From: Candidatus Humimicrobiia bacterium
GTDB taxonomy: Bacteria; Actinomycetota; Humimicrobiia; JAHJRV01
DNA length: 64,000 nt
Assembly (NCBI GenBank): GCA_049647085.1
Contig: JBARXA010000016.1
Span: forward strand, 310,593-374,592
Direction: 5' to 3'
The translations under genes and the position numbers were made by a program. Of this stretch, positions 19,416-62,680 are shown one piece after another; the stretch's first letter is position 1, and each line of letters starts with the position of its first letter. The notes under the pieces were generated by a model that saw only the letters and a list, made by a program, of their open reading frames with translations, had not been told where the DNA came from and did not search any database.

Positions 19416-19502
19416 ATTAATTCCCTAACATATTATTATCAATAATAGTTTATCACATTATAATTCTTTTTAGAAATTTAATTAAAAGATATTTTTTTTC
19501 AT

Positions 19503-19559
19503 GAAATTGCGGAGCCTGTTCCGATAGAGATTGCTCTCGAGCGAAGTGAAGGGATTGAG
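19503..19559 (+). repeat. copy of the repeat-family 5' segment plus one unit
   Basis: GAAATTGCGGAGCCTGTTCCGATAGAGATTGC aligns with GAGATTGCACAGCCTGTTGTGGGATAGATTGC at 26773. Confidence 0.55.
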
Positions 19560-19625
19560 TATTAACCTAACTTTTTAACAATACATATTATTTTATTGTA
19601 CATTAGATTATTTAAAATCCCAGAT

Positions 19626-21040: not shown

Positions 21041-21259
21041 TTATTGTTCGGTAACTTCCCGCTTAACATCAAAAGATATTTGAACTTTTACTCTATATTC
21101 AATAATTTTTCCCTCTTCAACCTTTGCCCAGGAATTTATCACATCTACTCTGTCAATACCCCTGATTGTATGTGATGCATCTGTAATTGCATTTCTCGCA
21201 GCATCACTCCAACTTCTAAAAGAGGAGCCTTCAAGTGTAATAAATTTTTTTACTGCCAT
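21041..21259 (-). CDS. dodecin-family flavin-binding protein
   Basis: MAVKKFITLEGSS...AITDASHTIRGIDRVDVINSWAKVEEGKIIEYRVKVQISF has the dodecin pattern. Start placed at the ATG 6 nt after AAGGAGGT; the track start at 21277 lies within the RBS. Confidence 0.6.
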   Translation of the reverse strand: MAVKKFITLEGSSFRSWSDAARNAITDASHTIRGIDRVDVINSWAKVEEGKIIEYRVKVQISFDVKREVTEQ

Positions 21260-21464
21260 TTTCATACCTCCTTGCATATTAAAATGATTAAGTTATTTAA
21301 AGATATTTTTACATAATTATTGATTCTATTTAAATATAATTATTATTAAATATTTTAAAAAAAGCAATTTTTATTAATTGAAAAAAGAAAAAATTTGAAT
21401 CAGTAATGTTACTACTATATTTTAAAACTAAAATTATTTATGATATCTAAAAAATATTTAGTAA

Positions 21465-21673
21465 GAGATTGCACAGTTTATTCCTTCCCCTTTCCTTCAT
21501 TCCGTTCAAGTACAGACTTTACACTCGAGCTTCAATTCCCCTCCCTTTATGGGAGGGGGTAGGGGGAGGGTTTGATGGAGATTGCCACGCCACCTTCAGT
21601 GGCTCGCAATGACAACCGGGATCTTGTTCGCAATGACAGTCAGGAACTTGCTCCGAACAGGCTGTGCAATCTC
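21465..21673. repeat. MITE-like element with 12-bp perfect terminal inverted repeats (GAGATTGCACAG / CTGTGCAATCTC)
   Basis: The terminal motif recurs at 26773 and in variant form at 19503; the interior contains the GC-rich hairpin/G4 element and GCAATGAC units. Confidence 0.55.
21533..21570 (-). repeat. GC-rich 38-nt hairpin/G4-motif repeat, copy 1 (reverse orientation)
   Basis: Exact reverse complement of the 38-mer at 62598-62635; the plus strand reads GGGAGGGGGTAGGGGGAGGG. Confidence 0.8.
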
Positions 21674-21695
21674 ATTAAAAATAGATTTTAGACTA

Positions 21696-21731
21696 TGTCA
21701 TTGCGAGGAGCGTTAGCGACATGGCAATCTC
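21696..21731 (+). repeat. unit of the GTCATTGCGAG...GCAATCTC repeat family
   Basis: GTCATTGCGAGGAGCGTTAGCGACATGGCAATCTC. Confidence 0.6.
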
Positions 21732-21788
21732 ATTTAAATTTATTATATTTAACATTTTGTTTTAGTAACAACAAAATTAAAACTTCTA

Positions 21789-22112: not shown

Positions 22113-23807
22113 ATGCAAGAAGAAAAAAAGTTATTTACTAGAAAAGCTACAGGATTAGTACGAGAAATAGGAGTTGGAACTGCAGTTCTTATAGCTATTG
22201 CTAATGTTGTTGGGTTGGGATGGCAAAAAAGAGTATTTCAGGCAACAGGTTGGGCTCCGGTTGGTGAGAGTAAATTTCTTCTTGGAATTCATCCAGTTGT
22301 AATGGCGTTCGCTATTACCGGAATAATTATTTTGGTATCATTGTACTGTTTTTCAATGTTATCAGCTGCTATGCCAAGATCGGGTGGTGGATACATATTC
22401 ATTTCCAGAATTCTAAATCCAGGCCTTGGGTTTGTAGCTACATGGTTACAGTTCTTTGCTGTTGCTGTTTCTTATGGATTAATAGCTGTTGCAACAATGG
22501 AAGCTGTCTGGCTTTTTGCAGGATTAGCTGGTGTTACACTTCCTGGATGGCTTACTAGTCCTATTGGATTATTCTTGTGGGGTGTATTAGTACTTGTAAT
22601 CTTTAGTGGTATCGCATTCTATGGAATAAAATTGACTGGAAAATTACTTCAATGGCTATTCTGGATTCCAGCATTTATATTAGTGATTGTATATATACTA
22701 TTCATTATTGCAACTCCAGGAACTATGGAGACAGGTGTTCAATCACTATTTGGTGCTAATGCTGCTGAGTATACACAAGCAGCTATTGATCAGGGAATGG
22801 CAGATACAGCAGCAGGAAATACCTACTGGGGAGCAGTTGGAACTGCAATGTTAGCAGCTTATTGGGCTTATATTGGTTATGCTGCTGCTTCATTTGTTGC
22901 TGGTGAGGTAAAAGAAGCACACAAGAGTTTACCAAAAGCTATGTTTACATCTGGATTAGTTATTATTGGTATCTATATGACTATTTCAACACTAATGGCA
23001 AGAGCTGCAATGATGGCTGGAAAAGTTGGAGATTTCTCGTTGATGTCAGCTATAGGATATCTTAATTTCGGAGGAGGAAGCTTTGCAGATGCTGGCTTAA
23101 ACTCAATTGGTGGATGGATGCCAGTTATTGGTGCAATATCAGCTGCAGGACGTGGATTTGGAGCAGGATTTATGTGGATACTGATATTATTTGCAGCTTT
23201 ATGGGTTGCTAATGACATTCCACCCTTCATTTTGACATCTTCAAGAATGATATTTGCTATGGCTTTTGATAGAGTTTTACCTGATAAATTAGCAAAAGTT
23301 AATGAGAAATGGCATTCACCAGTAAACGCAATTATTTTTGTGTCACTTGTTGCAATATTTGGTTGTGCTGCTGAAGCTGATCTTTTTGGAAAGAGCGGTA
23401 TATACTTAGGTGAATTCATACACTCAATCATAAATCCTGGTGGAGCTATTGCAGCGACTGACATATGGGATGCAATATTCTTCTTAGTTGTATGTATTGC
23501 AGCATTTTATTTCCCAATAAAAAAGCCTGATATATTTGAGAGGTCACCATTTAGAGCTAGTAAAACAGTTACTCAAATAATTGCAGCCCTGGCAATAATA
23601 GGAAATCTTATTGCTTTATGGGTATTCGCTACTAATGAACATGCGTGGAATCTTTTGAAAATAGACAGTTTGAGAGCTGCAATGCCATTCTTGTTCACAA
23701 TTTTCCTTATCGCTTTAGGGTTAGGAATCTACTTGTACTACAGTAATAAAGCCAAGTCAACAGGTGTTGAGCTAACTACAATATTTACGGAAATTCCTCC
23801 AGATTAA
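22113..23807 (+). CDS. APC-superfamily amino acid permease
   Basis: 564 aa, about 12 TM segments, Gly/Ala-rich helices typical of amino acid/polyamine/organocation transporters; TAGGAGGT RBS. Confidence 0.8.
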   Translation: MQEEKKLFTRKATGLVREIGVGTAVLIAIANVVGLGWQKRVFQATGWAPVGESKFLLGIHPVVMAFAITGIIILVSLYCFSMLSAAMPRSGGGYIFISRILNPGLGFVATWLQFFAVAVSYGLIAVATMEAVWLFAGLAGVTLPGWLTSPIGLFLWGVLVLVIFSGIAFYGIKLTGKLLQWLFWIPAFILVIVYILFIIATPGTMETGVQSLFGANAAEYTQAAIDQGMADTAAGNTYWGAVGTAMLAAYWAYIGYAAASFVAGEVKEAHKSLPKAMFTSGLVIIGIYMTISTLMARAAMMAGKVGDFSLMSAIGYLNFGGGSFADAGLNSIGGWMPVIGAISAAGRGFGAGFMWILILFAALWVANDIPPFILTSSRMIFAMAFDRVLPDKLAKVNEKWHSPVNAIIFVSLVAIFGCAAEADLFGKSGIYLGEFIHSIINPGGAIAATDIWDAIFFLVVCIAAFYFPIKKPDIFERSPFRASKTVTQIIAALAIIGNLIALWVFATNEHAWNLLKIDSLRAAMPFLFTIFLIALGLGIYLYYSNKAKSTGVELTTIFTEIPPD

Positions 23808-23846
23808 AATTCTGGTTGTTACAAACATACTATTGAAATTCGATAT

Positions 23847-23885
23847 ATCAGCTCCTGTTTAAAGCAGGAGCTGATTATCATTTAA
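23847..23885 (+). terminator. probable terminator of the permease gene
   Basis: 11-bp perfect stem ATCAGCTCCTG / CAGGAGCTGAT with a 7-nt loop; the following T-run is weak. Confidence 0.45.
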
Positions 23886-26669: not shown

Positions 26670-26772
26670 AACCCCTCCTATTTTTATTAATTATATCAGT
26701 AAAATTTAAAGAATCAATATATTGCATTACCTTTTATCACAATTACAAAATGTTAAAAATAATAAATATAAA

Positions 26773-26913
26773 TGAGATTGCACAGCCTGTTGTGGGATAG
26801 ATTGCTTCGCTTACGCTCGCAATGACATACTAGAATCTCGCTCCTCGCAATGACACATTGTCAACATATATTTTTATCATTGCGAGCAAGCTCCTGGTTG
26901 TCATTCAGGAGAG
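26773..26913. repeat. cluster of GAGATTGCACAG / GCAATGAC / GTCATTGCGAG repeat units
   Basis: Starts with GAGATTGCACAGCCTGTT, identical to the terminal repeat of the element at 21465-21673, followed by at least three GCAATGAC/GTCATTGC units in both orientations. Abuts the 3' end of the aldolase gene. Confidence 0.6.
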
Positions 26914-38535: not shown

Positions 38536-40200
38536 TTAATCAAGTTCTTTCAGTCTTTTATACGCAACAGTGCCACCATTACCTGCTTCATAAACTGTTT
38601 TGAAATTTTCCTTATATTTTTCAATTATCGGGTACACATACTTCATAAACCGTTCATTTGTTTTATCCTGTATTATAAAATCAGATTTATTCAAATACTT
38701 TTTTTGTTTTTGTTCATCATCACTATATGGAAATGATATCGTCTCTCTATTAGTTATAATATAAACTAAGAAATTACTCCTGCTAAGTATTGAACTGCCA
38801 TCATAAGAATTTTCCTTTAACCAATACATTGCATCATAGAAATTCTCCCATGATTTACCATATATAAATTTTTTATTATTTTTATAATCAAGACTCTTAT
38901 TTATTACTAAATATCCACCATAGATACTTCCAGTTAAAAATATAATAAAAGTTAGTATTAAAACTGTTGATGCAAATATTTTAATTATTTTTTTTGTTGA
39001 AATTTTTAGTATTATCTCTTTAAAAAACAAGACCCCACTTGAAAAAAGAATGATTAAAATAGGAATTACGCAAACCGTAAGTCTTTCTGATTGCCATGGC
39101 CACATATGAAGACCGATAAAATAAAGTATTAAATATATTGTATAAATATATTTCTTCTTTTTCAAGAAATAAATAATTCCTAAAATAACTAAGATTATAG
39201 AAAGTAAAATTGCAATAAAATATAAATCTTTAATTTTTAATATTTCAAAAAAATTTGAAATATTCCCTTTTAAAATATCTTTTAAGCCATTTGTCAGTTG
39301 CGAAAAAACTGCTTTAAAATAATAATCGAAATTTGATTTTGCTCTTTCAAAAAATTTTATAAAATCTATATTTCCTTCGGAATAGTCACTGAGATTGACC
39401 TTGAAAAACTCACTTACATAGCTAACTTTATTTGAAATCATTGCTCTTAAGTTCCACAAAATAACTGGTACTAATGTAAATACAAAATAAATTCCTGATC
39501 TAATTTTGTTCTCACTTAAAAAGATTTGTATAAATATTGCAAGGATGATGAAAATACCAATTGGTCTGATTAAAAATGTAAATATTGAAAAAAATATCAA
39601 TAAAATAAAATTAAGATTGAGATGCTTTTTTATTCTCTCAAATAAATTATTTTTATCCTCAGAATGTTTGTCATTGTCATCCTGAGCATAGCGAAGGATC
39701 TCAAAATTAAGATTTAACCTACTACTTTCATTCTCAGAATAATTACTCTTACTATTGTTTAAGTATTTAATATTACTTTCTTCGCTAATCTCTCTATAAT
39801 TTAAGTTATAAAAATATAAAGTGATAAGAAGAAAAAGATTATATACAGTCTCTGTCATTACTTTTGATGAGAAACTTAGAAGTTCAGGATGAGTTATAAA
39901 AAAAATTGATGCCAGCAATAAAGTTAATCTATCCAGATCCTTTTTTGCTACAAGATAGAAAAATAATACTGAAAGAATAAAACATGAAACTACAATTATT
40001 TTAGATACTATTAAAATATTTGATTCAATAAATTTAGAACCTAAAATAAAATAAAAAAATGATAATATAAGTGGAAAACCTGGATATGCCTTGTAATCAG
40101 GAGGATTTTCTGGATAATTTATTAATTTAAATCCAATTCCTTGAGAAATGGATTTTCCAAGTATCATATATCTTGCATTATCACCAAAACAAGATAACAC
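38536..40200 (-). CDS. glycosyltransferase family 39/83-like membrane protein (ArnT/PMT-like); 5' end uncertain
   Basis: Polytopic membrane protein with a DNARY-type motif near the N-terminus. A predicted TM helix lies in frame upstream of the track ATG with no ATG; contains an in-frame repeat-family insert. Confidence 0.55.
   Translation of the reverse strand: MLSCFGDNARYMILGKSISQGIGFKLINYPENPPDYKAYPGFPLILSFFYFILGSKFIESNILIVSKIIVVSCFILSVLFFYLVAKKDLDRLTLLLASIFFITHPELLSFSSKVMTETVYNLFLLITLYFYNLNYREISEESNIKYLNNSKSNYSENESSRLNLNFEILRYAQDDNDKHSEDKNNLFERIKKHLNLNFILLIFFSIFTFLIRPIGIFIILAIFIQIFLSENKIRSGIYFVFTLVPVILWNLRAMISNKVSYVSEFFKVNLSDYSEGNIDFIKFFERAKSNFDYYFKAVFSQLTNGLKDILKGNISNFFEILKIKDLYFIAILLSIILVILGIIYFLKKKKYIYTIYLILYFIGLHMWPWQSERLTVCVIPILIILFSSGVLFFKEIILKISTKKIIKIFASTVLILTFIIFLTGSIYGGYLVINKSLDYKNNKKFIYGKSWENFYDAMYWLKENSYDGSSILSRSNFLVYIITNRETISFPYSDDEQKQKKYLNKSDFIIQDKTNERFMKYVYPIIEKYKENFKTVYEAGNGGTVAYKRLKELD
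39670..39702. repeat. repeat-family unit inserted in-frame within the glycosyltransferase CDS
   Basis: GTCATTGTCATCCTGAGCATAGCGAAGGATCTC; 33 nt, encodes EILRYAQDDND in a low-complexity loop. Confidence 0.5.
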
Positions 40201-43387: not shown

Positions 43388-43485
43388 TTAATTTTCTCCT
43401 TTCTTTTAAAAATGTTTATTTTAAATTTAAAAATTAATATTAAGGAAAATCTTATCATTTTACCAGATTCTTTAATATATTTGAT

Positions 43486-43520
43486 GAGATTGCTTCGTCG
43501 CTTACGCTCCTCGCAATGAC
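43486..43520 (-). repeat. 35-nt unit of the GTCATTGCGAG...GCAATCTC family (reverse orientation)
   Basis: Plus strand GAGATTGCTTCGTCGCTTACGCTCCTCGCAATGAC; between gap and whiA. Confidence 0.6.
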
Positions 43521-43561
43521 AAATAAATAACAGATATCATCTATAGGGTTTCTAATATTTT

Positions 43562-61241: not shown

Positions 61242-61392
61242 CTTTTAGAAAATAAATTAAAAGTCTCACTTTTTAATTTAGTGAAGTTATAAGTTATTAA
61301 AAATTAAATTACATTTAAGAATTAAATTAGTACAATATTGTCTTAATAATAACACAATAAAAAAAGCATTTATTAGAATTTTAAATATACAC

Positions 61393-61488
61393 CCTCCCCC
61401 TACCCCCTCCCATAAAGGGAGGGGAATCATAAGAGAAGTTCTCATTACCCCTCATATAAAGGGAGGGGAATCATAAGAGAAGTTCTCC
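61393..61488 (+). repeat. GC-rich hairpin/G4-motif repeat, copy 2, followed by a tandem partial duplication
   Basis: CCCTCCCCCTACCCCCTCCCATAAAGGGAGGGGAAT, then a roughly 45-nt unit (TAAAGGGAGGGGAATCATAAGAGAAGTTCTC...) repeated about twice. Confidence 0.8.
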
Positions 61489-61627
61489 TTACCTCTCCTA
61501 TAAAGACATTCTATATCAAATGAAAAATAAGTATTAAACTGTTAAAAAATAAAAATATTTGAGTCATACCTTGAAAATTTAATAAGAGAGGAATTGAGTA
61601 AAAATATAAATTTTTTTTAAATCTTAT

Positions 61628-62509: not shown

Positions 62510-62597
62510 AATTATTAATCTATTTTAATTTAAATTTAATATTTTAAAATCTAAGAGTTCTAATAGATTTGTGGCATGGTTTCGAAGACATTTCAAA

Positions 62598-62635
62598 CCC
62601 TCCCCCTACCCCCTCCCATAAAGGGAGGGGAATTG
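62598..62635 (+). repeat. GC-rich hairpin/G4-motif repeat, copy 3
   Basis: CCCTCCCCCTACCCCCTCCCATAAAGGGAGGGGAATTG, identical to the reverse complement of 21533-21570. Confidence 0.8.
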
Positions 62636-62680
62636 AGTGAAACGAAGAGAGAAACTATGCCCAAATCTTCCAAAAGTTAT

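Follow-up and report, generated by a model that had tools for sequence, protein, structure and literature searches.

Ssn-related hairpin repeats as the probable components of a mosaic block in an intergenic spacer of a Candidatus Humimicrobiia genome

Introduction

The DNA considered here is a stretch of 64,000 nt (contig JBARXA010000016.1, positions 310,593 to 374,592; referred to below as the window) from a metagenome-assembled genome (MAG) of Candidatus Humimicrobiia (Actinomycetota) from marine sediment, and its GC content is 30%. Within it, a spacer of 836 nt separates the divergently oriented genes for Dodecin (21041-21277, minus strand) and for an APC-family amino-acid permease (22113-23807, plus strand). 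While the segment at about 21465-21731 has a GC content of up to 48%, that of the rest of this spacer is only 16–20%, and the question raised by this locus is what kind of element this GC-rich segment represents. In an earlier note on this DNA, positions 21465-21673 were described as resembling a miniature transposable element of the inverted-repeat type (MITE), with 12-bp terminal inverted repeats or, failing that, as a composite of the kind formed by repetitive extragenic palindromes (REPs) and bacterial interspersed mosaic elements (BIMEs). The results presented here support the second of these suggestions. With a probability that we place at about 0.78, the region 21405-21770 is a BIME-like mosaic of short repeats, rich in GC, that have accumulated in an AT-rich divergent intergenic spacer and whose units belong to a subclass of the Ssn-related motifs (SRMs), i.e., REPs that carry a TGTC tag.

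The enzyme to which these motifs owe their name, SsnA, is a 94-aa single-domain GIY-YIG protein (CDD cd10448) that acts as a site-specific single-stranded DNA (ssDNA) endonuclease in Neisseria (Chenal et al., Nat Commun 2025, PMC11893778). Its binding to the NTS hairpin CGTCATTCCCGCGMAVGCGGGAATCYRG is confined to ssDNA and to one strand, and it cleaves a few nt upstream (5') of the motif or tag, with no cleavage of double-stranded DNA, RNA or the opposite strand (PMC11893778). SsnA lowers the transformation by NTS-bearing DNA about five-fold and it restricts incoming transforming ssDNA in Neisseria (PMC11893778). Thousands of SsnA homologues have SRMs at their flanks, and the SRM-ssn-SRM arrangement, which in the view of the same authors resembles an insertion sequence (IS), was compared by them with REPs, REP-associated tyrosine transposases (RAYTs) and BIMEs; biochemical results are published only for three homologues from Neisseria and one from Wolbachia (PMC11893778).

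Composition of the Repeat Block

The repeat unit on which the mosaic is based is directional and 35–36 nt long, and it has the layout TGTCATTGCGAG, variable inner hairpin, G-N-R, GCAATCTC. The parts of the mosaic and the related copies elsewhere in the window are as follows.

21405-21770, no strand assigned: hypervariable block comprising the whole repeat mosaic and its AT-rich arms; the flanks align with orthologous spacers
21465-21476, plus strand: left arm of the 12-bp inverted repeat, consisting of GAGATTGC (the tail octamer of a minus unit) and ACAG; a 12-nt stub of the sub-module GAGATTGCACAGCCTGTT
21477-21531, plus strand: pyrimidine-rich segment, single copy in the window and in relatives, with no definable repeat family
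21532-21575, plus strand: G-rich unit, with an 8-bp hairpin CCCCTCCC/GGGAGGGG and then a second G-run; a separate family, not an SRM
21578-21613, minus strand: complete SRM-type unit of 36 nt, GTCATTGCGAG-CCACTGAAGGTGG-CGTGGCAATCTC; matches the unit pattern
21614-21637, minus strand: partial unit, head only, GTCATTGCGAAC-AAGATCCCGGTT; 89.7% match to 26877-26905
21638-21673, plus strand: degenerate or hybrid unit with GCAATCTC at its end; the final 12 nt form the right arm of the 12-bp inverted repeat
21697-21731, plus strand: complete SRM-type unit of 35 nt, GTCATTGCGAG-GAGCGTTAGCGAC-ATGGCAATCTC; 89% identical to 43484-43521
21732-21770, plus strand: AT-rich arm joined to the unit tail; recurs elsewhere together with the unit
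26774-26905, no strand assigned: second mosaic cluster, consisting of the sub-module GAGATTGCACAGCCTGTT (26774-26791) and three units
26798-26826, minus strand: short complete unit in the second cluster
26833-26854, minus strand: truncated unit head in the second cluster
26877-26905, plus strand: partial unit in the second cluster
19478-19568, plus strand: 91-nt insertion with degenerate units (GAAATTGCGGAGCCTGTTCCGATAGAGATTGC...; 19503-19559) and no target-site duplication
43486-43520, minus strand: complete SRM-type unit that stands alone, with a co-directional gene on either side

The pattern GTCATTGCGAG-N(15-25)-GCAATCTC has three matches in the window (21578-21613 and 43486-43520 on the minus strand, 21697-21731 on the plus strand), as against an expectation of 0. 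When the shorter copy at 26798-26826 (minus strand) is counted, the window contains four complete units, in addition to several truncated or hybrid copies. The predicted fold of the unit at 21578-21613 consists of the 5-bp outer stem and an inner stem of 5–6 bp, with a free energy of -8.2 kcal/mol (z -2.4).

The perfect 12-bp inverted repeat reported for this region is indeed present, with GAGATTGCACAG at 21465-21476 (plus strand) and its exact reverse complement at 21662-21673. Within the window, GAGATTGCACAG has three matches at no more than one mismatch, compared to 0.21 expected, and this number was reached in 0 of 100 shuffles. We also recovered the pyrimidine-rich segment (21477-21531), the G-rich hairpin unit (21532-21575) and the two GCAATGAC octamers (21606-21613 and 21630-21637) that had been noted in its interior, as well as a variant of the terminal motif, GAAATTGCGGAG, at 19503. 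The 35-nt unit GTCATTGCGAGGAGCGTTAGCGACATGGCAATCTC is likewise present, but its true span is 21697-21731 and its start is not 21696; similarly, the terminal motif does open the second cluster, where a third copy of the 12-mer occupies 26774-26785, but the start is at 26774 and not 26773. What had been overlooked is that the first eight bases of the 12-mer constitute the terminal octamer of the 35-nt unit family, and that a complete copy of the unit (21578-21613, minus strand) lies inside the supposed MITE. This octamer (GCAATCTC/GAGATTGC) occurs nine times in the window, seven of them inside repeat clusters.

The 18-nt sub-module GAGATTGCACAGCCTGTT is found whole at 26774-26791 and 21656-21673, and only 12 nt of it remain at 21465. 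Two opposed pieces of this sub-module both start with the conserved tail octamer of the family, and the "terminal inverted repeat" of 12 bp arises as a by-product of this. In inverted orientation, 21656-21676 matches 26771-26791 at 100% identity, and 21724-21760, comprising the tail and AT-rich arm, matches 26745-26781 at 94.6%. When the block was compared by BLAST with the rest of the window, its component parts were observed to recur independently and the 209-nt element had no second copy.

Structure and Distribution of the Unit

The unit is built from an unpaired TGTC tag, then a 5-bp outer stem (ATTGC/GCAAT) with a GA/GNR internal loop and an inner hairpin that varies, and last a CTC tail. 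Its consensus reads T(79%)-GTCATTGCGAG ... GCAATC-TC, and conservation is 80–100% over TGTCATTGCGAG and GCAATCTC and at background level immediately outside of them. The inner segment has at least four contiguous pairs in 120 of 439 distinct units versus 5 of 439 shuffled ones. A total of 70 distinct arms were seen in the inner hairpin, with loops that are mostly GNA triloops (GAA, GCA, GTA), so that its sequence varies while the pairing is kept. Covariation of the outer stem is seen among the subfamilies (ATTGC/GCAAT, ATGCC/GGCAT, ATTCT/AGAAT, and ATCCT/AGGAT). Where units are neighbors elsewhere, they form (+)(-) doublets with spacers of 4–60 nt in 76 cases and (-)(+) doublets in 13.

The distribution of the unit was scanned with a pattern of 19 specified bases against one genome per species. 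At least 120 stretches matched it, and the chance expectation for this pattern in the genome collection is, by our own estimate, roughly 56 matches. The sharp edges of conservation and the paired inner hairpin nevertheless make it clear that the pattern matches are not random. Among the matches listed, the unit is present in Chloroflexota, Planctomycetota, Patescibacteria, Bacillota, Bacteroidota, Pseudomonadota (including Rickettsiales), Nitrospirota, Atribacterota, Omnitrophota and others, amounting to well over a dozen phyla overall. The exact window-type unit also occurs in at least 120 IMG/VR viral contigs, a count in which true phage genomes and host flanks are not distinguished.

A search of the whole window against Rfam at the gathering threshold detected four tRNAs only, and permissive scans of the region of interest and of six unit-rich loci gave nothing relevant; no RNA family in Rfam covers the unit. 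Searches of the literature with the DNA words of the unit and with the peptide-like words that it encodes gave chance primer matches only. Some other kinds of repeats were also considered. Integron attC sites were dropped purely on sequence grounds, as their GTTRRRY/RYYYAAC cores are missing from the unit, and CRISPR repeats and coding repeats were likewise set aside, the units being inverted and of variable length (31–43 nt, not multiples of three).

Association with an ssn Gene

To identify genes that accompany the unit, the open reading frames (ORFs) of the 120 listed unit-bearing loci (1655 ORFs) were clustered, and adjacency was inspected for the GIY-YIG family alone. A small GIY-YIG ORF directly abuts the units in 4 of the 120 listed pattern loci, which are from different phyla, and the layout is unit (+), 15–50 nt, ORF, 10–45 nt, unit (-). 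The encoded protein is about 95 aa long and consists of a single domain, for which GIY-YIG is the only Pfam match, and the family to which it belongs is very large, with about 70% identity across phyla. The association was also tested in reverse, using 80 metagenome loci retrieved with a protein alignment, in which units were sought within 150 nt of the gene. A (+) unit was present upstream in 48 of 76 cases and a (-) unit downstream in 42 of 77; both were found in 26 loci, and only four loci had no unit. For the published motif, the corresponding flanking figures are 71% and 42% (PMC11893778).

The unit-flanked gene is a member of the Ssn family and a homologue of SsnA at E<1e-10. In comparison with the SsnA orthologue of N. 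gonorrhoeae, the family gave an hhalign probability of 99.8 (E 1e-29) with 42% identity over the full length, and for the protein from locus L027 the BLASTP comparison gave an E value of 4e-30 and 49% identity. The N. gonorrhoeae orthologue is 94 aa long, has the residues Y6, Y17, and E64 as in PMC11893778, and is surrounded by NTS copies. It was taken from NZ_CP119140.1, which, like NZ_CP119142.1, is a 2.17-Mb N. gonorrhoeae record filed among the PLSDB plasmids; their size suggests that both are chromosomes mislabeled in the database. The only relatives detected in the PDB were two uncharacterized UPF0213 structural-genomics proteins (1zg2 and 1ywl), and no NCBIfam family matches the GIY-YIG proteins.

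Homologues of ssn were also found in 24 predicted viral contigs (IMG/VR), and in 18 of these, hairpins with a GTCAT tag lie close to the gene. Other SRM subclasses, several of them likewise bipartite, flank the more distant ssn genes of viral contigs. In Planktothrix agardhii, the plasmid NZ_LR882964.1 (18847-19131) carries an ssn homologue that is 67% identical to our protein P0100 and is flanked by GTCATTCTGAG...AGAATCTC units. Its neighbors are a type IIL MmeI restriction-modification gene on one side and the DISARM gene drmA on the other, i.e., the context is a defence island. A further observation concerns a Falkowbacteria MAG (locus L049, 2559-3007), where ssn is split by an insertion of about 140 nt, itself a long palindrome, yet two inverted units still flank it; as the split gene remains between its two inverted units, this is a decaying cassette.

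Variation among Related Genomes

The earlier note had proposed that related genomes be examined for presence or absence of the element, and the outcome of this comparison favors mobility or rapid turnover. Five syntenic loci from relatives (L205–L209) were available, and their identity to the window in the nucleotide sequence of the permease gene is 95% for L205 and L207, 87% for L208 and 83% for L209. At the spacer block 21405-21770, L206 contains the identical mosaic, L205 and L207 have a different one, and only AT-rich DNA is present in L208 and L209. The variant of the unit at 21578-21613 with the CCAC hairpin is found in the mosaic of L205 and L207 in the opposite orientation (94.6% in L205). 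Relative to L208 and L209 the edges of the insertion at 21405-21770 are not definable, as the AT-rich flanks are too diverged for a base-by-base alignment. The 91-nt insertion at 19478-19568, by comparison, is present in the window and in L205 and precisely absent from L208. A search for target-site duplications revealed none at the ends of the element and none at this clean insertion when compared with the empty site of L208. The cluster 26774-26905 is absent from L205, whose spacer consists of 111 nt of AT-only DNA. L208 and L209 contain repeat insertions of their own in other spacers, located downstream of the permease (L208 4696-5022, L209 4696-5200); the insertion in L208 is a block of about 110 nt with two other hairpins, and that in L209 is an inverted pair of GTCATCCC.../GTCATTCTGAG...AGAATCTA units. 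In view of the differing content at three spacers among these relatives and the separate insertions in L208 and L209, the repeats turn over quickly.

The repeat mosaic and the Dodecin-side spacer of L206 are identical to those of the window, whereas its permease is only 95% identical at the nucleotide level (an L205-type allele). This pattern suggests that strains have recombined at or near the repeats, or else that the metagenome assembly is chimeric. Two independent short-read assemblies of this organism (Logan contigs L002 and L003) end inside the mosaic, at about window position 21588, and such contig breaks fit a multi-copy repeat.

An inverted repeat of a different kind, CAGCTCCTG...CAGGAGCTG, is located at about 23830-23870, just past the stop codon of the permease gene. 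Unlike the SRM mosaics, it is present in all of the relatives (L205 4740-4775 and the equivalent positions in L208 and L209), and it looks like an ordinary intrinsic terminator.

Interpretation and Alternative Explanations

The unit has the attributes by which SRMs are recognized: it is a directional hairpin of 20–50 nt in which a conserved, unpaired tag containing GTC lies 5' of the palindrome and a conserved C directly 3' of it, and in other genomes this exact unit type flanks ssn genes, in 26 loci on both sides and inverted. In the autonomous form of the family, two inverted units enclose the ssn gene for the GIY-YIG protein of about 95 aa. We propose that the copies in the window would be gene-less derivatives, serving as recognition sites for an Ssn protein that is encoded elsewhere in the genome or was formerly present. 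Ssn may act on these copies in this organism, and the spread and turnover of the repeats may be driven by its action on ssDNA, much as REPs depend on RAYT, with the clusters being scrambled by recombination between inverted copies.

A number of observations weigh against the assignment of the mosaic to the SRMs. The published SRM string, HGTCWYN(0-2)YYVSBRHN(0-5)WNVSBRGN(0-2)RNCYNB, has 0 matches in the window and is matched in only 1 of the 80 ssn loci of this clade. When the units at 21578-21613, 21697-21731 and 43486-43520 were tested singly, all of them failed this string, whereas the NTS consensus passes. This string, built on 29 genomes, serves more for searching than for defining the motif. 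The units in the window fold only weakly better than their shuffles under nearest-neighbor parameters (z -0.8 to -2.4), and one of them does not adopt the canonical fold. The common GAGCGAAGCGAC core contains the d(GCGAAGC) mini-hairpin along with tandem G-A pairs, which nearest-neighbor parameters presumably undervalue. The two complete units of the block are arranged as (-)(+), 83 nt apart, in contrast to the (+)(-) order that dominates elsewhere. About one-third of the mosaic (the pyrimidine tract, the G-rich unit and the AT arms) is not SRM, and since the inserted blocks carry AT-rich arms, the mobile entity here is not simply the 35-nt unit. Lastly, no ssn homologue was found in about 85 kb, a search that took in the window, the 10 kb to the left of it and the loci of the relatives. 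The earlier statement that the window lacks a transposase was examined for ssn-type GIY-YIG genes only, and for these it holds throughout the 64 kb.

It is also conceivable, though we regard it as a good deal less probable than the mosaic assignment, that the TGTCATTGCGAG...GCAATCTC class is a distinct pan-bacterial SRM-ssn lineage and a genuine mobile element, for which Ssn is the transposase or homing enzyme. The recognition site would in this case be modular, with the conserved outer stem and tag for the enzyme and an inner hairpin free to vary, and the element, effectively a new class akin to the ISs, would move between phyla, possibly on phages. It could still be active in this Humimicrobiia lineage, as insertion polymorphisms exist among relatives that are 83–95% identical. 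The association with ssn, the conservation across phyla and the polymorphism are observations; a movement catalyzed by Ssn is putative.

The repeats could alternatively be relics, left by a past deposit or by recombination between strains, with Ssn lost since then and with a present role that is passive or cis-acting; we consider this improbable, and equally so the cis roles that might be envisaged, such as hairpins affecting supercoiling, the transcription of Dodecin and the permease, or mRNA stability. The failure to find ssn in about 85 kb, the truncated or hybrid state of many copies in the window and the location of the mosaic in a divergent promoter region are all in keeping with relics, and 19% of the genomes with more than 200 SRMs have no detectable ssn (PMC11893778). 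However, two 44-nt G-rich units and a copy of a 21-nt sub-module are 100% identical within the window, and close relatives (95% identity) differ in their content; these identical copies and differences point to recent activity rather than to old relics.

That positions 21465-21673 are a single non-autonomous MITE with 12-bp terminal inverted repeats, moved as a whole by a DDE-type transposase encoded elsewhere, appears very improbable. A perfect match of 12/12 in the inverted repeat is unlikely by chance, a weak inverted similarity (38 nt at 76%) reaches into the AT-rich flanks and the region is an insertion relative to L208 and L209. However, the 209-nt segment is nowhere repeated as one unit, either in the window or in the relatives, and its modules recur apart from one another, viz. 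the G-rich unit at 61.4 and 62.6 kb without repeat arms and, at 43.5 kb, the unit that stands alone. Of the 18-nt sub-module, the left arm retains a stub of only 12 nt, no direct repeat is seen at the ends or at the clean 91-nt insertion 19478-19568, and L205, at 95% identity, has the same unit variant inverted and in another arrangement. Moreover, the outward ends of the supposed element (GAGATTGC ... GCAATCTC) are those which, in the gene-carrying form, face inward toward the gene.

We attach just as little credence to classical REPs or BIMEs mobilized by RAYT or another Y1 enzyme of the IS200/IS605 type, since, although short imperfect palindromes, an unpaired tag, inverted doublets and mosaic clusters belong to the general REP/BIME picture (PMC3733652), the tag is TGTC and not GTAG, no transposase gene was found to have CGTC-type repeats at its flanks (PMC3733652), clustering of the 1655 ORFs of the 120 listed loci (clustering only, no profile search) gave no recurrent transposase cluster, the only ORF family found abutting the units, in an inspection confined to that family, is GIY-YIG, and units flank ssn in the 80 ssn loci.

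The G-Rich Repeat Family and Other Copies

Three further copies in the window involve either the G-rich unit or a sister type of the unit.

39676-39702, plus strand: sister-type unit GTCATCCTGAGCATAGCGAAGGATCTC with the outer stem ATCCT/AGGAT, inside the long ORF 38536-40200 (minus strand)
61391-61491, minus strand: G-rich unit, then a tandem 44-nt duplication
62593-62636, minus strand: G-rich unit identical to 21532-21575

The G-rich unit of the mosaic (21532-21575) has 100% identical copies on the minus strand at 62593-62636 and 61391-61427, and its predicted DNA fold has a free energy of -9.8 kcal/mol. Its architecture is that of a hairpin of 8–10 bp formed by a C-run and a G-run and followed, after 2–5 nt, by a further G-run that repeats the 3' arm. 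The same architecture, with a different sequence, was observed in Chloroflexus, Anaerolineae, Latescibacterota and one other MAG (look-alikes at L055 3745-4240, L040 about 7113, L031 about 5897, and several in L085). On the C-rich strand, two G-rich units of the window terminate in GGGGAATC, as NTS does at its 3' end, whereas the G-rich family has no GTCAT tag. It is a separate repeat family and not SRM, and no associated gene was identified for it.

The sister-type unit at 39676-39702 is preceded by a degenerate inverted half (CCTCAGAATG), and its host ORF is 554 aa long. It represents either an intragenic insertion or an ORF call that is too long.

Significance

A MITE-like oddity has thus been placed in a system whose enzyme was characterized only in 2025, and the host range of Ssn and SRMs is extended to an uncultured AT-rich actinobacterial class of marine sediment. 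The distribution of SRMs has probably been under-counted, because the published pattern fails to detect a very widespread subclass that occurs in viral contigs as well as in well over a dozen phyla. Each pair of Ssn and SRM is a candidate reagent for the sequence-specific cutting of ssDNA, and a subclass in which a conserved outer module is combined with a variable inner hairpin provides a natural test bed for what the enzyme reads. The units also break short-read assemblies, which matters for annotation, and such units may seed spurious "hypothetical proteins" in the annotation of MAGs.

Comparison with Known Systems

Like the IS-derived MITEs of bacteria, the repeats described here are small, non-coding, and present or absent between relatives, but they differ in showing neither a repeat of unit length nor a target-site duplication, and they share no terminal inverted repeat with a transposase-bearing IS. 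With the REP, BIME, REPIN and RAYT systems they have in common short hairpins that flank the gene for a small nuclease and are read by it as ssDNA, an occurrence as singletons, inverted doublets and mosaic clusters, and an insertion without target-site duplication. They are distinguished from the REP/RAYT pair by a GIY-YIG hydrolase in place of an HUH/Y1 transesterase, and by a TGTC rather than a GTAG tag, and a transposition activity of Ssn is putative.

A closer resemblance is to the CGTC-tagged REP superfamily, in which the unpaired tag is often TGTC and can also be CCTC, the stems start with A-T pairs, the unpaired tail is short and inverted dimers predominate (Di Nocera, De Gregorio, Rocco, BMC Genomics 2013, PMC3733652). 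These repeats are known from several phyla, include dRS3 of Neisseria and RPE-4/RPE-6 of Rickettsia, and no transposase gene was found to be flanked by them (PMC3733652). The window-type unit has the same unpaired TGTC tag and a stem that begins with two A-T pairs (ATTGC ... GCAAT). The CGTC-tagged REPs, however, have a continuous stem of 8–9 bp, a loop of 4–5 nt and mostly a CCA tail, whereas in the window-type unit the stem is interrupted by a 2x3 internal loop, the terminal loops are of 3–7 nt (mostly 3 nt) and the tail is CTC.

The closest counterparts are NTS and the other SRMs. Their published examples differ from the present case in that the host here is from an uncultured class of Actinomycetota and the window subclass is known from its sequence, and NTS has one 9-bp stem, whereas the window-type stem is bipartite, combining a conserved 5-bp outer stem and a GA/GNR loop with a free inner hairpin. 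The similarities are an unpaired (C/T)GTC tag, a stem that starts with AT and a C after the palindrome (CGTC-ATTCCCGCG...CGCGGGAAT-C in comparison with TGTC-ATTGC...GCAAT-C), and in both instances the repeats are multi-copy, intergenic and inverted around a gene for a single-domain GIY-YIG protein of about 95 aa.

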